From Chthoniobacteraceae bacterium (GTDB lineage: Bacteria; Verrucomicrobiota; Verrucomicrobiia; Chthoniobacterales; Chthoniobacteraceae), in NCBI GenBank assembly GCA_031409335.1, contig JANNWY010000186.1:1-64000 (forward strand): 64,000 nucleotides of DNA, given 5' to 3'. A program made the position numbers and the translations under genes. Below the pieces are notes generated by a model that did no database searches, had not been told where the DNA came from, and saw only the letters and a list, made by a program, of their open reading frames with translations. Below are positions 10,908 through 47,877 of this stretch, in pieces; positions within the stretch are counted from its first letter, which is position 1; every line of letters begins with the position of its first letter.

Positions 10908-11849
10908 ATGGAGACCGCTCATCTTCTCGACATCATCCGCTCGATCCTCGGCCAACCGACCGCGCCATTTCACGAGGACGCCGTGCGCGCGGAGATCTGC
11001 CAGCAGCTCGGGCAGTGTCCCCACGTCACGCTGGAAATCGACGACCATCAAAACCTCATCGCGCTTTACACCCGCGGCGAGGCCAGCCCGCGTTTCGCGT
11101 TTGCGGCGCACATGGATCATCCGGGATTTGTGGATGGAAAATTCCTGGGTGGCGTGCCGCCGGAGTATCTCGCACGCCGGCCGCCGACGCGCGATTTCGG
11201 GGCGTTCGCGATGTGGGATTTGCCCGCGTTCACGCTGGAGCACTCCCGGATTTACTCCCGCGCCTGCGACGATCTGATCGGCTGCGCGGCGATCGTGGCG
11301 ATGTTTCATGAACTCGAACGCACTGGCGCGGAAGCCTCGTGCTACGGACTTTTCACGCGTGCCGAGGAAGTCGGCCTGGTCGGCGCGACGCTGCTCGCGC
11401 AGTCGGGACGCATCCCGCGCGAAGTGACGGTGATCTCTTTGGAAACAAGCAGCGAACTCGGCGGTTCCGCGCGGATGGGCGCGGGCGTGGTGGTGCGCGT
11501 CGGCGATCGCACGACGGTCTTCGATGATGCCACGACGGCCATGCTCGCGCTGCTCGCGGTAAAAAATGAAATCCCGTTTCAACGCTGCCTGATGAGCGGC
11601 GGCACCTGCGAAGGCACCTCGTATCAACTTTACGGCTACCGCACTGGCGCGCTGTGCGTGACGCTGGGGAATTATCACAACTGCGGCCCCGACACGACGA
11701 TCGACTCCGAGTATGTCTCGCTCGCCGACGTGGAGGCGATGACGCGGCTGTGCGTCGCCGCAGCGAGCGCGGGTGAAGCCGTCGATCCGCACGCGGAGCT
11801 GCGCGGGAAGTTTGAGAAGGCCGTGGAGAAATACCGTCGGATGCTCTAA
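10908..11849 (+). CDS. M28/M42-family metallopeptidase
   Basis: AAHMDHPG, ACDDLIG, AEEVG, GGTCEG, NYHN metal-ligand motifs. Confidence 0.8.
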   Translation: METAHLLDIIRSILGQPTAPFHEDAVRAEICQQLGQCPHVTLEIDDHQNLIALYTRGEASPRFAFAAHMDHPGFVDGKFLGGVPPEYLARRPPTRDFGAFAMWDLPAFTLEHSRIYSRACDDLIGCAAIVAMFHELERTGAEASCYGLFTRAEEVGLVGATLLAQSGRIPREVTVISLETSSELGGSARMGAGVVVRVGDRTTVFDDATTAMLALLAVKNEIPFQRCLMSGGTCEGTSYQLYGYRTGALCVTLGNYHNCGPDTTIDSEYVSLADVEAMTRLCVAAASAGEAVDPHAELRGKFEKAVEKYRRML

Positions 11850-11851
11850 CC

Positions 11852-11933
11852 GCTCCTGCTCTTGCTCCTGATCCTGATCCCTCCGAAATCCGCAGTGAGG
11901 ACGGGTGGATCAAGAGCAAGAGCAGGATCAAGA
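11852..11933. repeat. Inverted hexamer repeat (GCTCCT/GATCCT ... AAGAGC/AGGATC) between convergent genes
   Basis: Arms 11852-11880 and 11907-11933; the right arm contains the recJ stop codon. Confidence 0.8.
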
Positions 11934-13619
11934 TTCTGCGGCGCGCACGGCGCGCATGTGGATCTGCGCGGAGACTGTGCCTTGATATTCGTTGCGTTCG
12001 ATGTTGAAGGCGATGTCCCACGGCAGGCGCGGCAGCTTTTCCGACACGGCCCCAAACCACACCGCGCGATACTCGTCGCCGCCCTGCCGCAGCATCAGCG
12101 AGAGATGTTTTTCCTTCATCACGCGCGGCCCGCCCGCGAGCGTGACGCCACGCGCAAAGAAGGTCGGTTGACGGTTGCCCATGCCAAACGGCTGGAGCGC
12201 GCAGTATTGCGCCAGCAGCTCGAAATTGATGTCGCCGATCGTAATCTCGACATCGAGATGCAGCCGTTCCTGAAGCTGCTCGGCATTTAGAATATCGAGC
12301 GCGCACGCGCGGAAGGCGTCGCGAAATTCCTCGAACGAATCGCGGCGCAGCGTGAGGCCGGCGGCCATTTCGTGACCGCCGTATTTTTCCAAATGCGACC
12401 CGCATTTCGTCAGCGCATACACCAGCGAAAGGCCGTCGATGCTGCGCCCGCTGCCGCGTCCCATGCCTTGTTCATCGAAGCCAATGACTAGCGAGGGCCG
12501 GTGATGCTGGCGCAAAAGTCGCGAGGCGACGATGCCGACGACGCCGGGATGCCAGCCATCGCCGCCGACCACGATCGCCGCATCGCGCGCCGGGTCGAAC
12601 CAGCCCGCGAGCTGCGCCTCGGCCTGCGCGAGCACGTGATCTTCGACCGAGCGGCGCTCGCGATTTTGCACATCGAGATCCGCCGCGATCGTGCGGGCGC
12701 GCGAGCGGTCTTCGGTGAGGAGCAGCTCGAGCGCGGCCTCGGCGGTGCCGAGCCGGCCGGCGGCGTTCATGCGCGGCCCGATTTTGAAGCCGACATCGGA
12801 CGGCGTCAGCGGCGGGCGCACGGCGGCGACATCCATCAGTTCGCGCAGCCCGATCGAAGTCGTCTTCGCAAGTTGCGTCAGGCCATGTTTGACGAGGATT
12901 CGATTTTCATCCGTGAGCGGCACGAGGTCGGCGACGGTCCCGAGCGCCACGAGGTCGAGATGCGCGCGCAGATCGAAGTCCGCGAGCGGGCGGCGCTTGA
13001 GCAGCGCGTGCGCGACTTTGAAGACGAGGCCGACGCTGCACAGATAGTGAAAAGTGTCGCCGCGTTTCGGGTTCACGAGCGCCGCGCAGTCCGGCAGCGC
13101 GCCTTTAATTTCGTGATGATCGATCACGATCGCCTCCACGCCGTCGGCTTTCAGCGCCGCGATTTCCGCGACGGAAGACGTGCCGCAATCCACCGCCACG
13201 AGGAGCTGCGGGTGAAACGTTTCGACGCAGCGATTCACGCCGTCCACGCTCAAGCCGTAACCTTCATCCGCGCGCAGCGGCAGGAAACTTTCCGGCTTCG
13301 CGCCAAATGCCCGCAGCACGCGCGTGAGCAGCGCGAGCGAGGTGACGCCATCGACATCGTAGTCGCCGTAAAGGACGATGCGCTCGCCGCGGTCGATCGC
13401 GGTGAGCAGGCGATCCACGGCGCGATCCATGTCCGGCAGGAGAAACGGATCGCTCAGCGTCTTCAGCCGCGGATCAAGGAAACAAGCGGCTTCCGGGCCG
13501 GTGGCGAATCCGCGCCGCGCGAGCAGCCCGGCGATGAACGGGGCGACACGGAGTTGCGCTGCGAGCGTTTCGACGGCAGTCGGATCGACGGGAGTGGGAG
13601 TGATCCAAAGAGGTGACAC
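11928..13619 (-). CDS. recJ: Single-stranded DNA-specific exonuclease RecJ
   Basis: YGDYDVDG, VDCG, IDHH, LGTVADLVPL, PRMNAAGRL, GSGRS, GGHEMAAG; GTG 13619 is the likely start. Confidence 0.96.
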   Translation of the reverse strand: MSPLWITPTPVDPTAVETLAAQLRVAPFIAGLLARRGFATGPEAACFLDPRLKTLSDPFLLPDMDRAVDRLLTAIDRGERIVLYGDYDVDGVTSLALLTRVLRAFGAKPESFLPLRADEGYGLSVDGVNRCVETFHPQLLVAVDCGTSSVAEIAALKADGVEAIVIDHHEIKGALPDCAALVNPKRGDTFHYLCSVGLVFKVAHALLKRRPLADFDLRAHLDLVALGTVADLVPLTDENRILVKHGLTQLAKTTSIGLRELMDVAAVRPPLTPSDVGFKIGPRMNAAGRLGTAEAALELLLTEDRSRARTIAADLDVQNRERRSVEDHVLAQAEAQLAGWFDPARDAAIVVGGDGWHPGVVGIVASRLLRQHHRPSLVIGFDEQGMGRGSGRSIDGLSLVYALTKCGSHLEKYGGHEMAAGLTLRRDSFEEFRDAFRACALDILNAEQLQERLHLDVEITIGDINFELLAQYCALQPFGMGNRQPTFFARGVTLAGGPRVMKEKHLSLMLRQGGDEYRAVWFGAVSEKLPRLPWDIAFNIERNEYQGTVSAQIHMRAVRAAES

Positions 13620-43451: not shown

Positions 43452-43544
43452 ACGCCGAAGGCTCTGGACTGCGGTGATTCCTTCACCGCTTTCCCATCGC
43501 GCCAAAAGCGCGGAGGAACCGCAGCAGTCCAGAGCCTTCGGCGT
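43452..43544. repeat. REP-doublet-like palindrome, copy 2 (same family as 41300-41402)
   Basis: Perfect outer 21-bp IR acgccgaaggctctggactgc / gcagtccagagccttcggcgt. Confidence 0.9.
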
Positions 43545-44227
43545 CACCGACTGCTCGCGATGGCGATGAGGTGGCGCAGCTCGTCCGCCGCGTCGCCGGG
43601 ATCGCTCACCGTTGCGGCGACTTCGGCGCGGATGATTTCCCGGAAGCGCGTGCGCAAGCGGTGGATCGCCACCTTCACCGCCGTCTCGCTCATGCCGAGC
43701 GCGCGTGCTGCTTCCGCTTGCGAACAGTCCGCGCCACCATCGAGCCACGGTTTGAGCGCGGGGAAATGCGCAGGCTTTTCTGCTTCCAACGCGGCAAGCG
43801 CGCGGGCGATGAGCGTGAAGGCCCACTCGCGATCGAAGGCGAGCGCATCATCCGGCGCGGCGGGCAGCGACAGACCGGCGGCGGTGTCGGTCGTCAGCGC
43901 GATGTGCTCCGCGCCAGCCCCGCGCTTTTCGGCGATGGCGGCAGCGCGATATTTGGAAAGGAAATGTTTCAGCGCGCCGAGCAGGTAGCTGCGAAATCGC
44001 CCGCGCTCCCGCTCCGGAGCGCCGACTCCGCCCGCGAGCAGCCCGGCGAAAAGGGCGTGCGCCATTTCCCGCGCCGCATCCTCATCGCGTCCCTCGCGCC
44101 TGAGAAACGCGACGACCGGCGCGTAGTACGCCGCGCACAAATCCGACAGCGCCGCCCGCGCCTCCGCGCCCTCGCCGCGCGCGCGGAGGACGAGCGTCCA
44201 GCGGGTTTCTTGGAAGGCGGCAGTCAT
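43544..44227 (-). CDS. ECF sigma-70 factor (kinase-associated PVC type)
   Basis: F.ETRWTLV, LC.AYY.PV, RGRFRSYL, FDREWA, AARALGMSETAVKVAIHRLR. Confidence 0.92.
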   Translation of the reverse strand: MTAAFQETRWTLVLRARGEGAEARAALSDLCAAYYAPVVAFLRREGRDEDAAREMAHALFAGLLAGGVGAPERERGRFRSYLLGALKHFLSKYRAAAIAEKRGAGAEHIALTTDTAAGLSLPAAPDDALAFDREWAFTLIARALAALEAEKPAHFPALKPWLDGGADCSQAEAARALGMSETAVKVAIHRLRTRFREIIRAEVAATVSDPGDAADELRHLIAIASSR

Positions 44228-44230
44228 GCT

Positions 44231-44259
44231 TTGACAGTGCTGGCACGATACGGAAATCT
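44231..44259 (+). promoter_or_regulatory. Putative sigma70 promoter of the TA module (possibly leaderless)
   Basis: TTGACA-N17-AAATCT ending just upstream of the antitoxin ATG at 44266; GTGC-TG-GCAC dyad in the spacer. Confidence 0.4.
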
Positions 44260-44265
44260 TCGAGC

Positions 44266-44505
44266 ATGAAAACGGCAACGCTGAACGACCTGCAAACCCG
44301 GCTCGACACCGTGCTCGATTGGGTGCGGAGCGGCGAGGATGTGGTGGTGAAAGGCGAGCCTGTCACGCCGGTCGCGCCGCAGGACGAAAAGAAAGTCGAT
44401 TGGAGTAAGAGCGCCGCGTTCCGTGACCGCACGGGCGAGCCGATGCTGAAAATGTCGAAGGAGGAACTCCAGGAGTTTTACGGTGACATGCGCGGGAGTT
44501 ACTAA
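44266..44505 (+). CDS. Phd/YefM-like antitoxin
   Basis: MKTATLNDLQTRLDTVLDWVRSGEDVVV..GEPV; directly upstream of a PIN gene. Confidence 0.85.
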   Translation: MKTATLNDLQTRLDTVLDWVRSGEDVVVKGEPVTPVAPQDEKKVDWSKSAAFRDRTGEPMLKMSKEELQEFYGDMRGSY

Positions 44506-44517
44506 AAGCCACGCGGG

Positions 44518-44949
44518 ATGATCTGCGCGGACACGAGTTTCCTGATTTCCCTTTACGGAAATGACGAACACAGCGCGGCGGCTCGCACCCTTCGCGCGGC
44601 ATCGGATGGGCCGCTCGTGGTGCATCCGATCATTGATTTCGAATACGCCAACGCCGTGCGCGCGCTCGTTTTCCGACGCAAAATAGAGCCGGAGCAATGC
44701 GACCAGTGGCTCGAATACTACGAAGCAGAAAAACGGCGCGGCTTTTTGTTGAACGCAGTGCTCGATCAGAATGCGGTCTTCGATGCCGCGGCGGAAATCT
44801 CGGCCAGACACACGCGCACCACCGGAAACCGTGCCTACGATGTCCTCCACATTGCCGCCGCCAAAATTCTCGCAGCGACGGAATTCTGGAGCTTCGACGG
44901 CCGGCAGCGCGCCCTCGCTGCGGCGGAGGGGCTGACGGTCGGCCCTTGA
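44518..44949 (+). CDS. vapC: VapC PIN-domain toxin
   Basis: ICADTSFL, FEYANA, RAYDVLHIAAA, FWSFDGRQ acidic tetrad. Confidence 0.92.
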   Translation: MICADTSFLISLYGNDEHSAAARTLRAASDGPLVVHPIIDFEYANAVRALVFRRKIEPEQCDQWLEYYEAEKRRGFLLNAVLDQNAVFDAAAEISARHTRTTGNRAYDVLHIAAAKILAATEFWSFDGRQRALAAAEGLTVGP

Positions 44950-45027
44950 TCCTGCGGCGTCCCCGCCGCTCGCGCGCAGCACGAGCTTCCTGCGCGTCGG
45001 GTAAAAGGCGTCGGTGGCGGGGGTCAT
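44941..45027 (-). pseudogene. Relic N-terminus of the ECF sigma gene, coupled to the kinase stop
   Basis: MTPATDAFYPTRRKLVLRASGGDAAGSRA versus sigma MTAAFQETRWTLVLRARGEGAEARAA. Confidence 0.75.
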
Positions 45028-47213
45028 TGGCCGTTCTTTGCCGACTCGGGGAATAGCTGTTCGAGGTTCGGCATGGTGAAGAACTCCGGACGTTCCGGAA
45101 CGGTCGCGGCCTTGATCACTCGATATGTCGAGCCCTGCCCCAAGGCTTTCAGTCTATCGCCGATGAGTTGCGTGAGTTCGTTCGCCTTGGCCGCCGCCAC
45201 TTCCGCCAAGGGAACCGCGTAGGAACGTGCGTTGAATTGTCCGGCGACCGGCGCGGCATCGGCGAAAAACTGTTCGACCTCGAAGGCGGAGTTCTCCGGC
45301 AGAACACCTCGAAGGATCCGCAACGGGTCGCCCTCGGCGGGGCGGAATTCGACGCGCGCAGTCGCCCGGTACGGCGCCGACATTTGCGAGAAATTAAGGC
45401 ACCGCCCTTTCTCGACCGAAATGAAGCACTGAATGAAAATTCTTTTCCCCTCCCGCTCCCGCTCGAACCAATACATGGGCTGCGGTGCCCTGCGGTCGGG
45501 CTGTGCTCCCAATCGCTTCTCTGCGCCCGTCCGCCAGACTCCCACGATTTTCCCGGTGAATACGTCCAGCCGTTCCGCGACGTACCTTTCCACCTCGGAA
45601 CGAGCCCCAGAGACGTTCATCGCGAGGTAGCGTTTGAAGCCTTCCTTGTCGTTGGCATTCGCCAGCTCGTTCATGCGGAGAATGGTTTCCAATGGCGAAT
45701 CTCCACCACGCGGATTGGACGTGTCGACTTCGATGTCTTCCATCTGGGCGACGCGAGGAACCCCCGGATCAGCTACGGATCCCTGCGCGGGAGAAGGCGT
45801 GATCACGACTCGACGTTTTGAAGGCACCGGAGCCGCAGATTTCGCGTCTGTCTGCGGGGAAATTTGCTGAGGCTCGGGAAGCCCAGTGTTCGATGCCTGC
45901 CTGCGCTGCAACTCCGCCTCCGCCTGCGCCATGGCCGCACGCATGGCGTCTCGTTCAGCATGCATTGCCGCCATTCCCCGGCGCATCGGCATGATCCAAA
46001 GACCGGCGGCGAAAACAAACATGACCGAAGCGACCACCGGCGACCATACCAGCACGCGCAGGCCAGGACGCCAGATCGGTGGGATTTGATCGCGTCGCAT
46101 CTTGGCGAGGGCGATGCACGCGCCGATGAAACCCAGCACGATGGCGACGATTGCGAACGTCAGCAGGACGCCTTGCGTGGAACCGTGGGTAAACACCGAC
46201 GCCGCGCCGAACATCACGATGCCGCCGAGCGCGAGCCCGATGCTCCACTTCGTGATCGGTGTCGGCTCTTCTTCGCTGCGGACGGGTGCGCGCTCCCCGG
46301 CGGTGGGCGCCGCGCGGGCAACCTCCGTCTTCACCTCCTCGGCGCTCTGCTGGCGGAGGCTGCGTTCCTTTTCCAAAGTCTGGAGCACGATCTCGTCGAT
46401 GCGCGCGCTGACCGCCGCGCGCTCGCTCGGCGCGGGGAAACGGCCCAGCGGCAGTTCACCGGTGAGCATTTCGTAGATGACCACGCCGAGGCTGTAGATG
46501 TCCGCACGGTGGTCCACGTCGTGCGGTTTTTCGTGCTGCTCGGGGGCCATGTAGGCAGCACTGCCGAGCGCGGCGCCCGTGGCCGTGAGCGTGAAATCGC
46601 GCCCTGGATCGCCGACGATGCGCGCGATGCCGAAGTCCACGATTTTCACGCCGCCCTGGGCGTCGAGGAGGATGTTCTCGGGCTTGATGTCGCGGTGCCA
46701 CACGCCCTGCGCGTGCGCCGCCTGGAGCGCGTCGCAGATGCCCGGCACCACACCGAGCGCCTGCTGCGGAGTGAATCGGCCGGCACGCATCGCCTGGCGG
46801 AGATTCACGCCGTCCACGAATTCCATGAGCAGGTAGAAAAAGCCGCCGCTCGTACCGTGCTCGAAGACGGTGACGATGTTCGGGTGGTTCAGCTTTCCTA
46901 GCACCCTCGCCTCGCGGGCAAAGCACTCGGCAAACGCCGGATCGCGCCCCAACTCGGGCGAGAGGATTTTCAGCGCGACGGTGCGATCCAGACTCGGCTG
47001 CCGCACTTTGTAGACAAAGCCCATGCCGCCCTGGCCGATGAGCGATTCGATTTCGAGCTGGGGAAACGCGGACGCGATTTCCGCGAGCGCGGGCGCGGCG
47101 CGACCGGCGGGCGCGGGCTCATCCGCATCGCGCAGGATGCACGCGGGGCAGAGGCCGCCCGGCGCATTCGCCGGGATGGGAGTTTTGCAGGCGGGACAGA
47201 TTTTGGTGTTCAC
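45024..47213 (-). CDS. Membrane Hanks-type Ser/Thr kinase with N-terminal zinc ribbon
   Basis: CPAC..CPAC, IGQGGMGFVY, VALK, HRDIKPEN, DFG, YMAPE, DIYSLG; three TM segments. Confidence 0.95.
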   Translation of the reverse strand: MNTKICPACKTPIPANAPGGLCPACILRDADEPAPAGRAAPALAEIASAFPQLEIESLIGQGGMGFVYKVRQPSLDRTVALKILSPELGRDPAFAECFAREARVLGKLNHPNIVTVFEHGTSGGFFYLLMEFVDGVNLRQAMRAGRFTPQQALGVVPGICDALQAAHAQGVWHRDIKPENILLDAQGGVKIVDFGIARIVGDPGRDFTLTATGAALGSAAYMAPEQHEKPHDVDHRADIYSLGVVIYEMLTGELPLGRFPAPSERAAVSARIDEIVLQTLEKERSLRQQSAEEVKTEVARAAPTAGERAPVRSEEEPTPITKWSIGLALGGIVMFGAASVFTHGSTQGVLLTFAIVAIVLGFIGACIALAKMRRDQIPPIWRPGLRVLVWSPVVASVMFVFAAGLWIMPMRRGMAAMHAERDAMRAAMAQAEAELQRRQASNTGLPEPQQISPQTDAKSAAPVPSKRRVVITPSPAQGSVADPGVPRVAQMEDIEVDTSNPRGGDSPLETILRMNELANANDKEGFKRYLAMNVSGARSEVERYVAERLDVFTGKIVGVWRTGAEKRLGAQPDRRAPQPMYWFEREREGKRIFIQCFISVEKGRCLNFSQMSAPYRATARVEFRPAEGDPLRILRGVLPENSAFEVEQFFADAAPVAGQFNARSYAVPLAEVAAAKANELTQLIGDRLKALGQGSTYRVIKAATVPERPEFFTMPNLEQLFPESAKNGQ

Positions 47214-47321: not shown

Positions 47322-47567
47322 ATGATTCTCGATCAGTTTCCCACGCTTCGCGGACTCGATACGGCTTCGCAGATACAATTGTCCGCAGAACTCTGGGACC
47401 TCGCGATGGACGCCGAGGCCAAGTTCACGCCGGGTGTTTTGGCGGCCCTCGAAGATCGGGTTGCCTACAACGAAAGTCATCCCGATGAAGTCTTCACTGC
47501 CGCCGAAGTGTCCACCCATTTGGCGGAGTTGAAACGCGAGATCGACGCTCGCCGCAAACGTGGCTGA
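47322..47567 (+). CDS. Addiction-module antitoxin (TIGR02574-like)
   Basis: L...QIQLSAELWD, LEDRVAYNESHPDEVFTAAEV; overlaps the toxin start. Confidence 0.75.
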   Translation: MILDQFPTLRGLDTASQIQLSAELWDLAMDAEAKFTPGVLAALEDRVAYNESHPDEVFTAAEVSTHLAELKREIDARRKRG

Positions 47568-47877
47568 GCAAGTCTGGACCGGGAGATTCGATCGTGAGAT
47601 TCAGGACGCATTTGCCCGATTCGAGGAGCGCACCGAGGGCGCGGGCGTTCGCTTCCACGAGCGGCTCTGCCACGAACTCGCACGCTTGGAAAACTTTCCC
47701 CGGCTCATGCGCGTAGGTCGCGCGGGCTCGCGCCGTCTCCCGATTGCGGCGACATCCTTTTGCGTCATTTATCGCTCCGAAGCCCGGGGGATCGTGCGAC
47801 ACGCGCTGATCGATCTCAGGCAGGATCCCGCATCCATCGAGCGAATCATCCGCGAAATCACCGAAGGACTGGAATGA
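47560..47877 (+). CDS. RelE/ParE-family toxin
   Basis: EIQDAFARFE..G.RF..LENFP, RRLPI..FCVIYR..ALIDLRQDP. Confidence 0.78.
   Translation: MAEQVWTGRFDREIQDAFARFEERTEGAGVRFHERLCHELARLENFPRLMRVGRAGSRRLPIAATSFCVIYRSEARGIVRHALIDLRQDPASIERIIREITEGLE

Follow-up and report, generated by a model that had tools for sequence, protein, structure and literature searches.

We report here that a vapBC toxin-antitoxin (TA) cassette lies antisense inside a kinase-sigma factor operon of a Chthoniobacteraceae bacterium, and that the strand opposite to both TA genes carries an open frame, hereafter the bridge, which overlaps the kinase stop codon at one end and the sigma start codon at the other. Across related loci this open antisense frame is beyond chance, and we are highly confident that it is under selection. 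Judging from the sequence, our preferred reading, to which we give a probability of about 0.65, is that the open bridge would serve as a ribosome relay from the kinase gene to the sigma gene.

The locus was analyzed within a 64,000-nt stretch of contig JANNWY010000186.1 (the window). The kinase gene and then the sigma gene are both encoded on the minus strand, about 800 nt apart, and the antitoxin-like and PIN-domain genes of the vapBC pair occupy the gap on the plus strand. The features are as follows:

43544..44227, minus strand: ECF-type sigma factor gene, 227 aa (Pfam Sigma70_r4_2 at 25.3 bits, below its cut-off of 25.7; TIGR02937 at 26.4 bits, below its cut-off of 42.9)
44224..44227, minus strand: ATGA overlap of bridge stop and sigma start (same overlap in L080, L065, L066, L067, L068 and L069; TAATG/TGATG form in L070)
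44231..44260, plus strand: putative sigma-70-type vapBC promoter (-35 box TTGACA at 44231-44236; weak -10 box at about 44254-44260; TTGAC invariant in aligned copies; function predicted)
44266..44505, plus strand: antitoxin-like gene, 79 aa (43 homologues; weak PhdYeFM_antitox match in some aligned members)
44506..44517, no strand: 12-nt spacer, antitoxin and toxin genes in one register (spacers are multiples of 3 in 14/14 cassette copies versus 2/50 controls)
44518..44949, plus strand: VapC-type PIN-domain toxin gene, 143 aa (PF01850 at 43.2 bits, cut-off 23.6; invariant acidic residues)
44950..45027, minus strand: remnant, 26 codons long, left from the original sigma 5′ end; it joins the antisense sequence of the vapC stop codon in frame and is similar to the sigma start
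44224..45027, minus strand: bridge ORF, 267 codons, antisense to and in register with the antitoxin gene and vapC; peptide unconstrained, frame conserved
45024..47213, minus strand: Ser/Thr protein kinase gene, 729 aa (Pfam Pkinase at 160 bits; its stop overlaps the bridge start as ATGA)

The coordinates, the 267-codon frame, the ATGA overlaps, the shared register, the 12-nt spacer and the 38 nt separating the sigma and antitoxin starts had all been given in an initial annotation of this DNA, and each was recovered exactly upon recomputation. No internal stop interrupts the bridge (44224-45027, minus strand) over its 267 codons, the kinase stop and the bridge ATG share bases within the ATGA at 45024-45027, and the low coordinates of the antitoxin gene (44266), vapC (44518) and the bridge (44224) all equal 1 modulo 3. 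The same annotation had described the beginning of the bridge as a degenerate sigma N-terminus, in agreement with our local DNA alignment of its first 26 codons to the intact sigma start; this remnant also resembles the start of L113, an orthologue with an empty site. Residues D5, E42, D108 and D127 of vapC, which we take to be the catalytic acidic residues, are invariant in 10/10 sequences, and the PhdYeFM_antitox profile weakly matched 4/22 aligned antitoxin members (best E 0.0012). A comparison of the VapC profile with solved structures yielded no match. On its sense strand the insert contains the antitoxin and vapC ORFs only, with no recombinase gene. Logan contigs from two runs of one study, one of which is possibly the source sample, cover positions 44180-46490 and 44114-45703 with 0 differences; since they cross both junctions, the junctions are not an assembly chimera.

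The genome of the window (G000) contains about 25 ECF sigma paralogues, most of them beside a Ser/Thr kinase gene and in both gene orders. Just behind the sigma gene, a palindromic repeat that is REP-like by appearance (43452-43544) matches its own opposite strand and several places in G001 and G002, with high contig depth. On the other side, a second TA-like pair encoding 81 and 105 aa (47322-47877, plus strand; weak ParE match, E 4e-4, under the cut-off) stands head to head with the kinase start, so that TA-like genes flank the kinase gene on either side.

An open in-register antisense frame was found in 2877/6073 (47%) of the 225-codon blocks of long genes from the same genome, which justifies, for a single locus, the caution of the initial annotation about antisense frames in GC-rich DNA. 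Furthermore, in 1 of 3 phases an insert flanked by two copies of an ATGA start will end on that ATGA. The open frame of the window locus alone is therefore weak evidence, and relatives were sought; the excess over chance comes from these related loci.

When toxin, antitoxin and DNA were used as queries, the arrangement of kinase, remnant of the sigma start, antisense vapBC and new sigma start was found again in several Verrucomicrobia, for a total of 14 distinct cassette copies once duplicates are merged: the window, L080, L081, L082, L064, L065, L067, L068, L069, L070 (two in tandem), L072, L026 and L123. The rows merged before counting were L066 (near-identical to L065), L071 (identical to L070), L035, L078 and L149 (L080), L036, L079 and L084 (L081), L122 (L082), and L003 and L049 (L026). 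Three loci devoid of a sigma gene (L073, L074 and L076) were moved to the controls, and the partial L075 and L077 were excluded. The copies are few and related, L065-L069 being close kin, and neither cassettes nor controls are independent samples; identity between their TA proteins ranges from 45 to 87%. A sigma start lies just before the antitoxin gene on the opposite strand in 11/14 copies, the others being L064, whose contig ends earlier, L026, which bears a deletion, and L123, which has none at the contig edge. The distribution is patchy. The whole antitoxin of the cassette clade was found in 3/151 genomes of the family and at a like score in 2/38 genomes of another family, with none in the 11 and 45 genomes of two other families, and the antitoxin of the window is its sole member in 401 genomes of the class. 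No relative was found in the viral contigs searched, nor any relative of the antitoxin in the plasmids searched with it. An nhmmer search of G000 returned one whole cassette in the genome. When window positions 44102-44945 were compared with runs X5 and X6, a 2822-nt contig of another study was found to carry an L080-type cassette junction, an independent assembly of the layout.

We then scored both ends of the bridge in each copy. The vapC stop codon abuts the remnant in all copies, with no terminator-like site between them, and remnants of 2, 7, 16, 17, 25, 26, 27 and 28 codons all join in frame; the remnant is out of frame in the decayed loci L072 and L026. At the other end, the bridge stop falls on the sigma start in 7/7 complete bridges as read from their sequences, as ATGA in six copies and as TAATG or TGATG in L070, whose sigma start and bridge stop are both displaced 7 codons further up, preserving the same frame relation. 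The gap between the sigma and antitoxin starts is fixed at 38 nt in 7/9 copies of the ATGA type. The bridge is complete in 7/14 copies (window, L080, L065, L067, L068, L069 and L070a), open with one end not scorable in L064 and L123, and broken in 5/14 (L081, L070b, L072, L026 and L082), all of which are damaged loci. Where kinase, TA and sigma genes look intact within the extent of the contigs (window, L080, L065/L066, L067, and L068, for which only 36 kinase codons are visible on the contig), the bridge is complete in 5/5 cases. Four of the five broken bridges accompany a decayed sigma gene. The exception is L082, whose kinase and sigma genes are whole while its bridge stops 50 nt short, with a start gap of 37 nt and an in-frame deletion in vapC; an intact sigma gene can therefore exist without the relay. 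The comparison with relatives proposed in the initial annotation thus supports preservation of the frame in every locus with intact kinase, TA and sigma genes, but not in L082, where kinase and sigma are intact beside a broken bridge. Conversely, L069 and L070a retain the bridge despite a damaged sigma gene, and the reading frame that precedes the bridge start in L064 and L069 does not encode a contiguous kinase. The loci of 8/14 copies have one or more broken genes, so that loss of the arrangement is common. Two different in-frame deletions, in L082 (2143-2364) and L123 (305-530), each remove about half of vapC, leaving the antitoxin gene whole and the register kept.

Antitoxin and toxin genes share one register in 9/9 intact two-gene cassettes, with spacers of 9, 12 or 15 nt, and so do the five partial or damaged copies, with spacers of 15, 18, 18, 15 and 12 nt. 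By comparison, only 2/50 control homologous vapBC pairs, and 0/28 of those matched for GC3, are in one register, most control pairs overlapping out of register (-1/-4 overlap). The vapC matches that did not span the profile were excluded from this comparison, and the -7 spacers in it reflect start choice, of which the frame relation is independent. The codons that would create antisense stops (TTA, CTA and TCA) are likewise depleted: 2 were observed in 10 cassettes versus 22.2 expected from GC3-matched controls (P 6e-8), 14.7 expected after correction for the lower A content at third positions (P 5e-5), and 26.7 expected from the flanking genes of the same loci. Both of them sit in loci with a decayed sigma gene (L081 and L070b). 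With a single copy per cluster (7 copies), the same 2 antisense stops compare with 15.6, 10.4, 18.8 or 7.0 expected (P 1e-6 to 0.03), the weakest figure (P 0.03) coming from the most conservative control, the long genes of the genome.

These results weigh upon two readings in which the open frame has nothing to do with a relay. In one of them, GC-rich codon use leaves the antisense strand open by chance, and the phases were fixed by one ancestral insertion and then inherited. The 47% of genome blocks of the same length that are open speak for it, as do the relatedness of the copies and a P value of only 0.03 against the long-gene rate. Yet only 2/28 GC3-matched control vapBC pairs are free of TTA, CTA and TCA in both genes, and the frame is preserved across four spacer lengths and no fewer than four remnant-length classes. 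Moreover, third positions at conserved four-fold codons differ by 49-82% among six of the 7 cluster representatives, so that silent sites are near saturation and the missing antisense stops are not a matter of simple inheritance. We consider this reading very unlikely and largely refuted. The other reading, in which the bridge is a functional protein encoded by an overprinted antisense gene, could account for an open frame with conserved start and stop positions. However, in four pairwise comparisons antisense identity was 52-68% where sense identity was 73-90%, the changes falling mostly at sense third positions, and synonymous changes on the sense strand freely alter the bridge peptide. Its N-terminus varies as well, comprising 2 to 28 remnant codons, and the ORF matches no Pfam or NCBIfam family and has no homologue among called proteins. 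The peptide is unconstrained and it is the frame that is kept, and we rejected a functional bridge protein as most improbable.

The initial annotation had also proposed that a TA cassette entered the 5′ end of the sigma gene, a view supported by the second sigma start and by the orthologous operons found empty, L113 and C196 of G000. The window and L080 share 87% identity in their TA proteins and only 48% in their sigma factors. The sigma factor of the window groups with that of the cassette-free L113 (support 98/90), which lies in the genome of L080 itself, whereas that of L080 groups with the cassette-free C196 in the genome of the window (100/100). Two genomes therefore carry 87%-identical TA genes in reciprocal operons, the other operon being empty in each. 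L113 and the window are 80% identical in sigma and 89.6% in the kinase domain, and the L113 kinase stop is joined directly to the sigma start. In a tree of 29 sigma factors, 4 changes are required for the five cassette carriers, no fewer than 3 of which are forced, and the carriers do not cluster (112/500 shuffles gave a number as low). TA alleles also change at a fixed site: L067 and L068 have sigma factors 98% identical and flanks 92-100% identical, with TA proteins only 61% identical, which makes this site an allele-swap hotspot, and the tandem TA units of L070 repeat the promoter and sigma start. From these alignments and trees, we conclude that paralogous kinase-sigma operons exchange the cassette and that swapping or stacking of TA alleles occurs at a single site, both of which the initial annotation had missed.

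Remnant and new sigma start form direct repeats, so that entry, stacking and clean loss can all be explained by recombination between sigma 5′ ends. Because a precise loss would rebuild a normal operon, gain and loss look alike at any single site. Cassette-free operons are often directly coupled, the kinase-sigma gap being -4 in L027, L114 and L144 and 0 in L113; other cassette-free pairs have no overlap, with gaps of 13-45 nt in L115, L132 and L146 and larger ones in C110 and C196. The cassette-free paralogue C196 of G000 has, at about 11725-12120, a small gene on the sense strand between the kinase and sigma genes, and the start of this gene is signal-peptide-like. The two tandem vapBC units of L070 (599-2058) differ from each other, and a separate promoter and sigma start accompany each; the vapC adjoining sigma has ACG at the expected start position. 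No joint skipping the cassette was seen among the matches listed for contigs of six runs, in which rare variants are dropped, and no integron or dif-type site was visible by eye at the junctions. The derivation of the L080 sigma 5′ end from another (X-type) sigma gene was rejected as weak (17 versus 14 of 22 residues).

The putative TA promoter lies within the 38 nt that separate sigma and antitoxin starts; its TTGAC is invariant in 12/12 aligned copies and lies 3 nt from the sigma ATG, so that the sigma start sits against the complement of this putative promoter. The antitoxin ATG is located about 6 nt behind the weak -10 box, and the vapBC transcript is probably leaderless. A consensus promoter scan found nothing and did not flag the putative TTGACA promoter. 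Short imperfect inverted repeats with arms of 2-6 nt cover the putative -10 box at 44244-44265 and in several homologous copies; they are a possible antitoxin operator, weak in the window itself. A Shine-Dalgarno sequence preceded the sigma start in 0/11 copies, an uninformative figure given that the same rough test was positive in only 111/1315 long ORFs of the genome, and folding around the sigma start revealed no clear pattern.

In the relay that we propose, kinase, bridge and sigma genes would belong to one transcript. Ribosomes ending the kinase gene would restart on the old sigma start (the remnant ATG), read 240-270 codons of filler antisense to vapC and the antitoxin gene, and use termination-reinitiation to begin again at the new sigma start. 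The kinase-to-sigma ratio would thereby be preserved, and translation would cover 750-800 nt otherwise open to Rho. ATGA and TGATG overlaps were strictly coupled in 13/14 tested pairs according to the available part of one report (PMC6728339), and polarity exerted by Rho on RNA left uncovered by ribosomes is described in the accessible text of another (PMC12548453). The cassette, devoid of a recombinase, would move or be lost by recombination between sigma 5′ ends, and only frame-keeping joints would persist while the operon is in use. Beyond the relay itself, we put at even odds a broader interpretation, that of a selfish cassette that masks itself. In this view a vapBC without a recombinase would spread by recombination at sigma 5′ ends among paralogous kinase-ECF operons, and would offset its own polar effect by means of an antisense ORF of 750-800 nt, indifferent to peptide sequence, that carries ribosomes over from kinase to sigma. 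Such a passenger agrees better than a fixed circuit with the empty orthologues, the allele swaps and the dead toxins.

Two further explanations accept an open frame and assign it another role. The frame could be open only to shield the RNA from Rho, or to push RNA polymerase through the TA genes, with sigma starting independently and the end overlap being incidental. Such a shield would have an adversary in this genome, which encodes Rho homologues (C33 57864-59093 and C160 54073-55167; 508.3 and 467.3 bits, both under the cut-off of 509.45), and it would agree with the intact sigma gene of L082, which does without end coupling, and with the one-in-three odds of ending on ATGA. It leaves unexplained, however, why the stop falls on the sigma start in every complete bridge (7/7), why start and stop are both displaced in L070 and still overlap, and why the 38-nt gap is fixed in 7/9 ATGA-type copies, and we regard it as improbable. 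Alternatively, the locus could be a host-selected switch of the non-contiguous operon type, in which kinase-sigma transcription silences vapBC by antisense or collision and could free VapC, vapBC transcription dampens sigma, and the bridge is a helper. This explanation is compatible with the relay. Full antisense overlap would be forced if the operon is one transcript, the lack of a terminator-like site between vapC and the remnant and the TA -35 box lying 3 nt from the sigma start point the same way, and such switches have been shown in S. aureus, as far as the accessible parts of the reports go (PMC11034616, PMC11087260). On the contrary, orthologous operons do without the cassette (L113 and C196), which is patchy (3/151 family genomes) and freely swaps alleles, and vapC is deleted in L082 and L123. 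We therefore think selection for a switch unlikely; the mutual antisense control suggested in the initial annotation would likely be a side effect if the operon is one transcript.

If the self-masking cassette is real, it would explain naturally how non-contiguous operons can occur in the presence of active Rho, and would be the first example found in which a ribosome relay on the opposite strand dictates the codon choice and spacing of two protein genes. The locus is also a clear example of an antisense ORF that selection keeps open although it is no protein gene, and it shows a route for TA modules into coupled operons at little cost. The idea is testable with single synonymous changes.

Non-contiguous operons of S. 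aureus and phages contain one gene or several in opposite orientation with their own promoter, and the S. aureus set includes TA systems, as described in the available portions of two studies (PMC11034616, PMC11087260). The gene layout reported here, known from sequence rather than from transcripts, matches theirs. The accessible text of the atlas (PMC11034616) names the untranslated antisense stretch a puzzle and explains the crossing by runaway transcription, an answer for Gram-positive bacteria only; an open relay frame is not among the explanations in that text. In the lineage studied here, which has Rho homologues, the corresponding stretch is instead an open frame coupled at its ends, and the alternative would be to keep the antisense strand translatable. 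The same text holds non-contiguous operons to be unpredictable from DNA (PMC11034616), whereas in-register nested genes, missing TTA, CTA and TCA codons, and overlaps at both ends would offer a sequence signature for predicting operons of this kind.

The cassette resembles type II VapBC systems by its PIN domain over the cut-off, four invariant acidic residues, small upstream gene and promoter-like site, the toxicity of VapC being putative. It differs from them by an in-register spacer instead of the -1/-4 overlap of most control pairs, and by its fixed position in sigma 5′ ends. The skin element interrupts the sigma gene sigK and carries TA loci, and SXT supplies a new 5′ end to its target gene. 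SXT/R391 ICEs in prfC likewise exemplify an element in the 5′ end of a gene, in the part of the source at hand (PMC2791158). These are large elements that need their own recombinase, unlike the 720-bp cassette, which comprises only a promoter, an antitoxin gene and a toxin gene; sigma is here whole without excision. The host operon itself recalls kinase-associated ECF groups (ECF43, ECF59-62, ECF217, ECF267 and ECF283), with sigma beside a Ser/Thr kinase gene and no adjacent anti-sigma gene, as far as the available text tells (PMC7826278). In the planctomycete groups ECF59 and ECF217 of that text the kinase gene is downstream, whereas here it is upstream of sigma, and the words "antitoxin" and "PIN domain" are absent from the available part of its supplement (PMC7826278).

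The literature searched, in which subscription journals are mostly outside coverage, contained no description of the arrangement. MIRUs are short repeats of about 50-100 bp. In the accessible account of them (PMC12548453), a mobile unit at a start codon carries an ORF coupled to the target gene by a -4 overlap and is thought to spare its expression. By its sequence, the cassette is similarly a mobile unit with an internal ORF overlapping a downstream start. The relay ORF is, however, 240-270 codons long and runs antisense through two protein genes and a promoter, which makes the unit, at about 720 bp plus the remnant, ten times longer; it is also present in one copy per genome, whereas MIRUs are repeated at many sites per genome, and the cassette is thus not a MIRU. 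The arrangement is real, conserved and apparently undescribed, and joins two known ideas by placing a probable MIRU-like relay in the antisense strand of a mobile vapBC.
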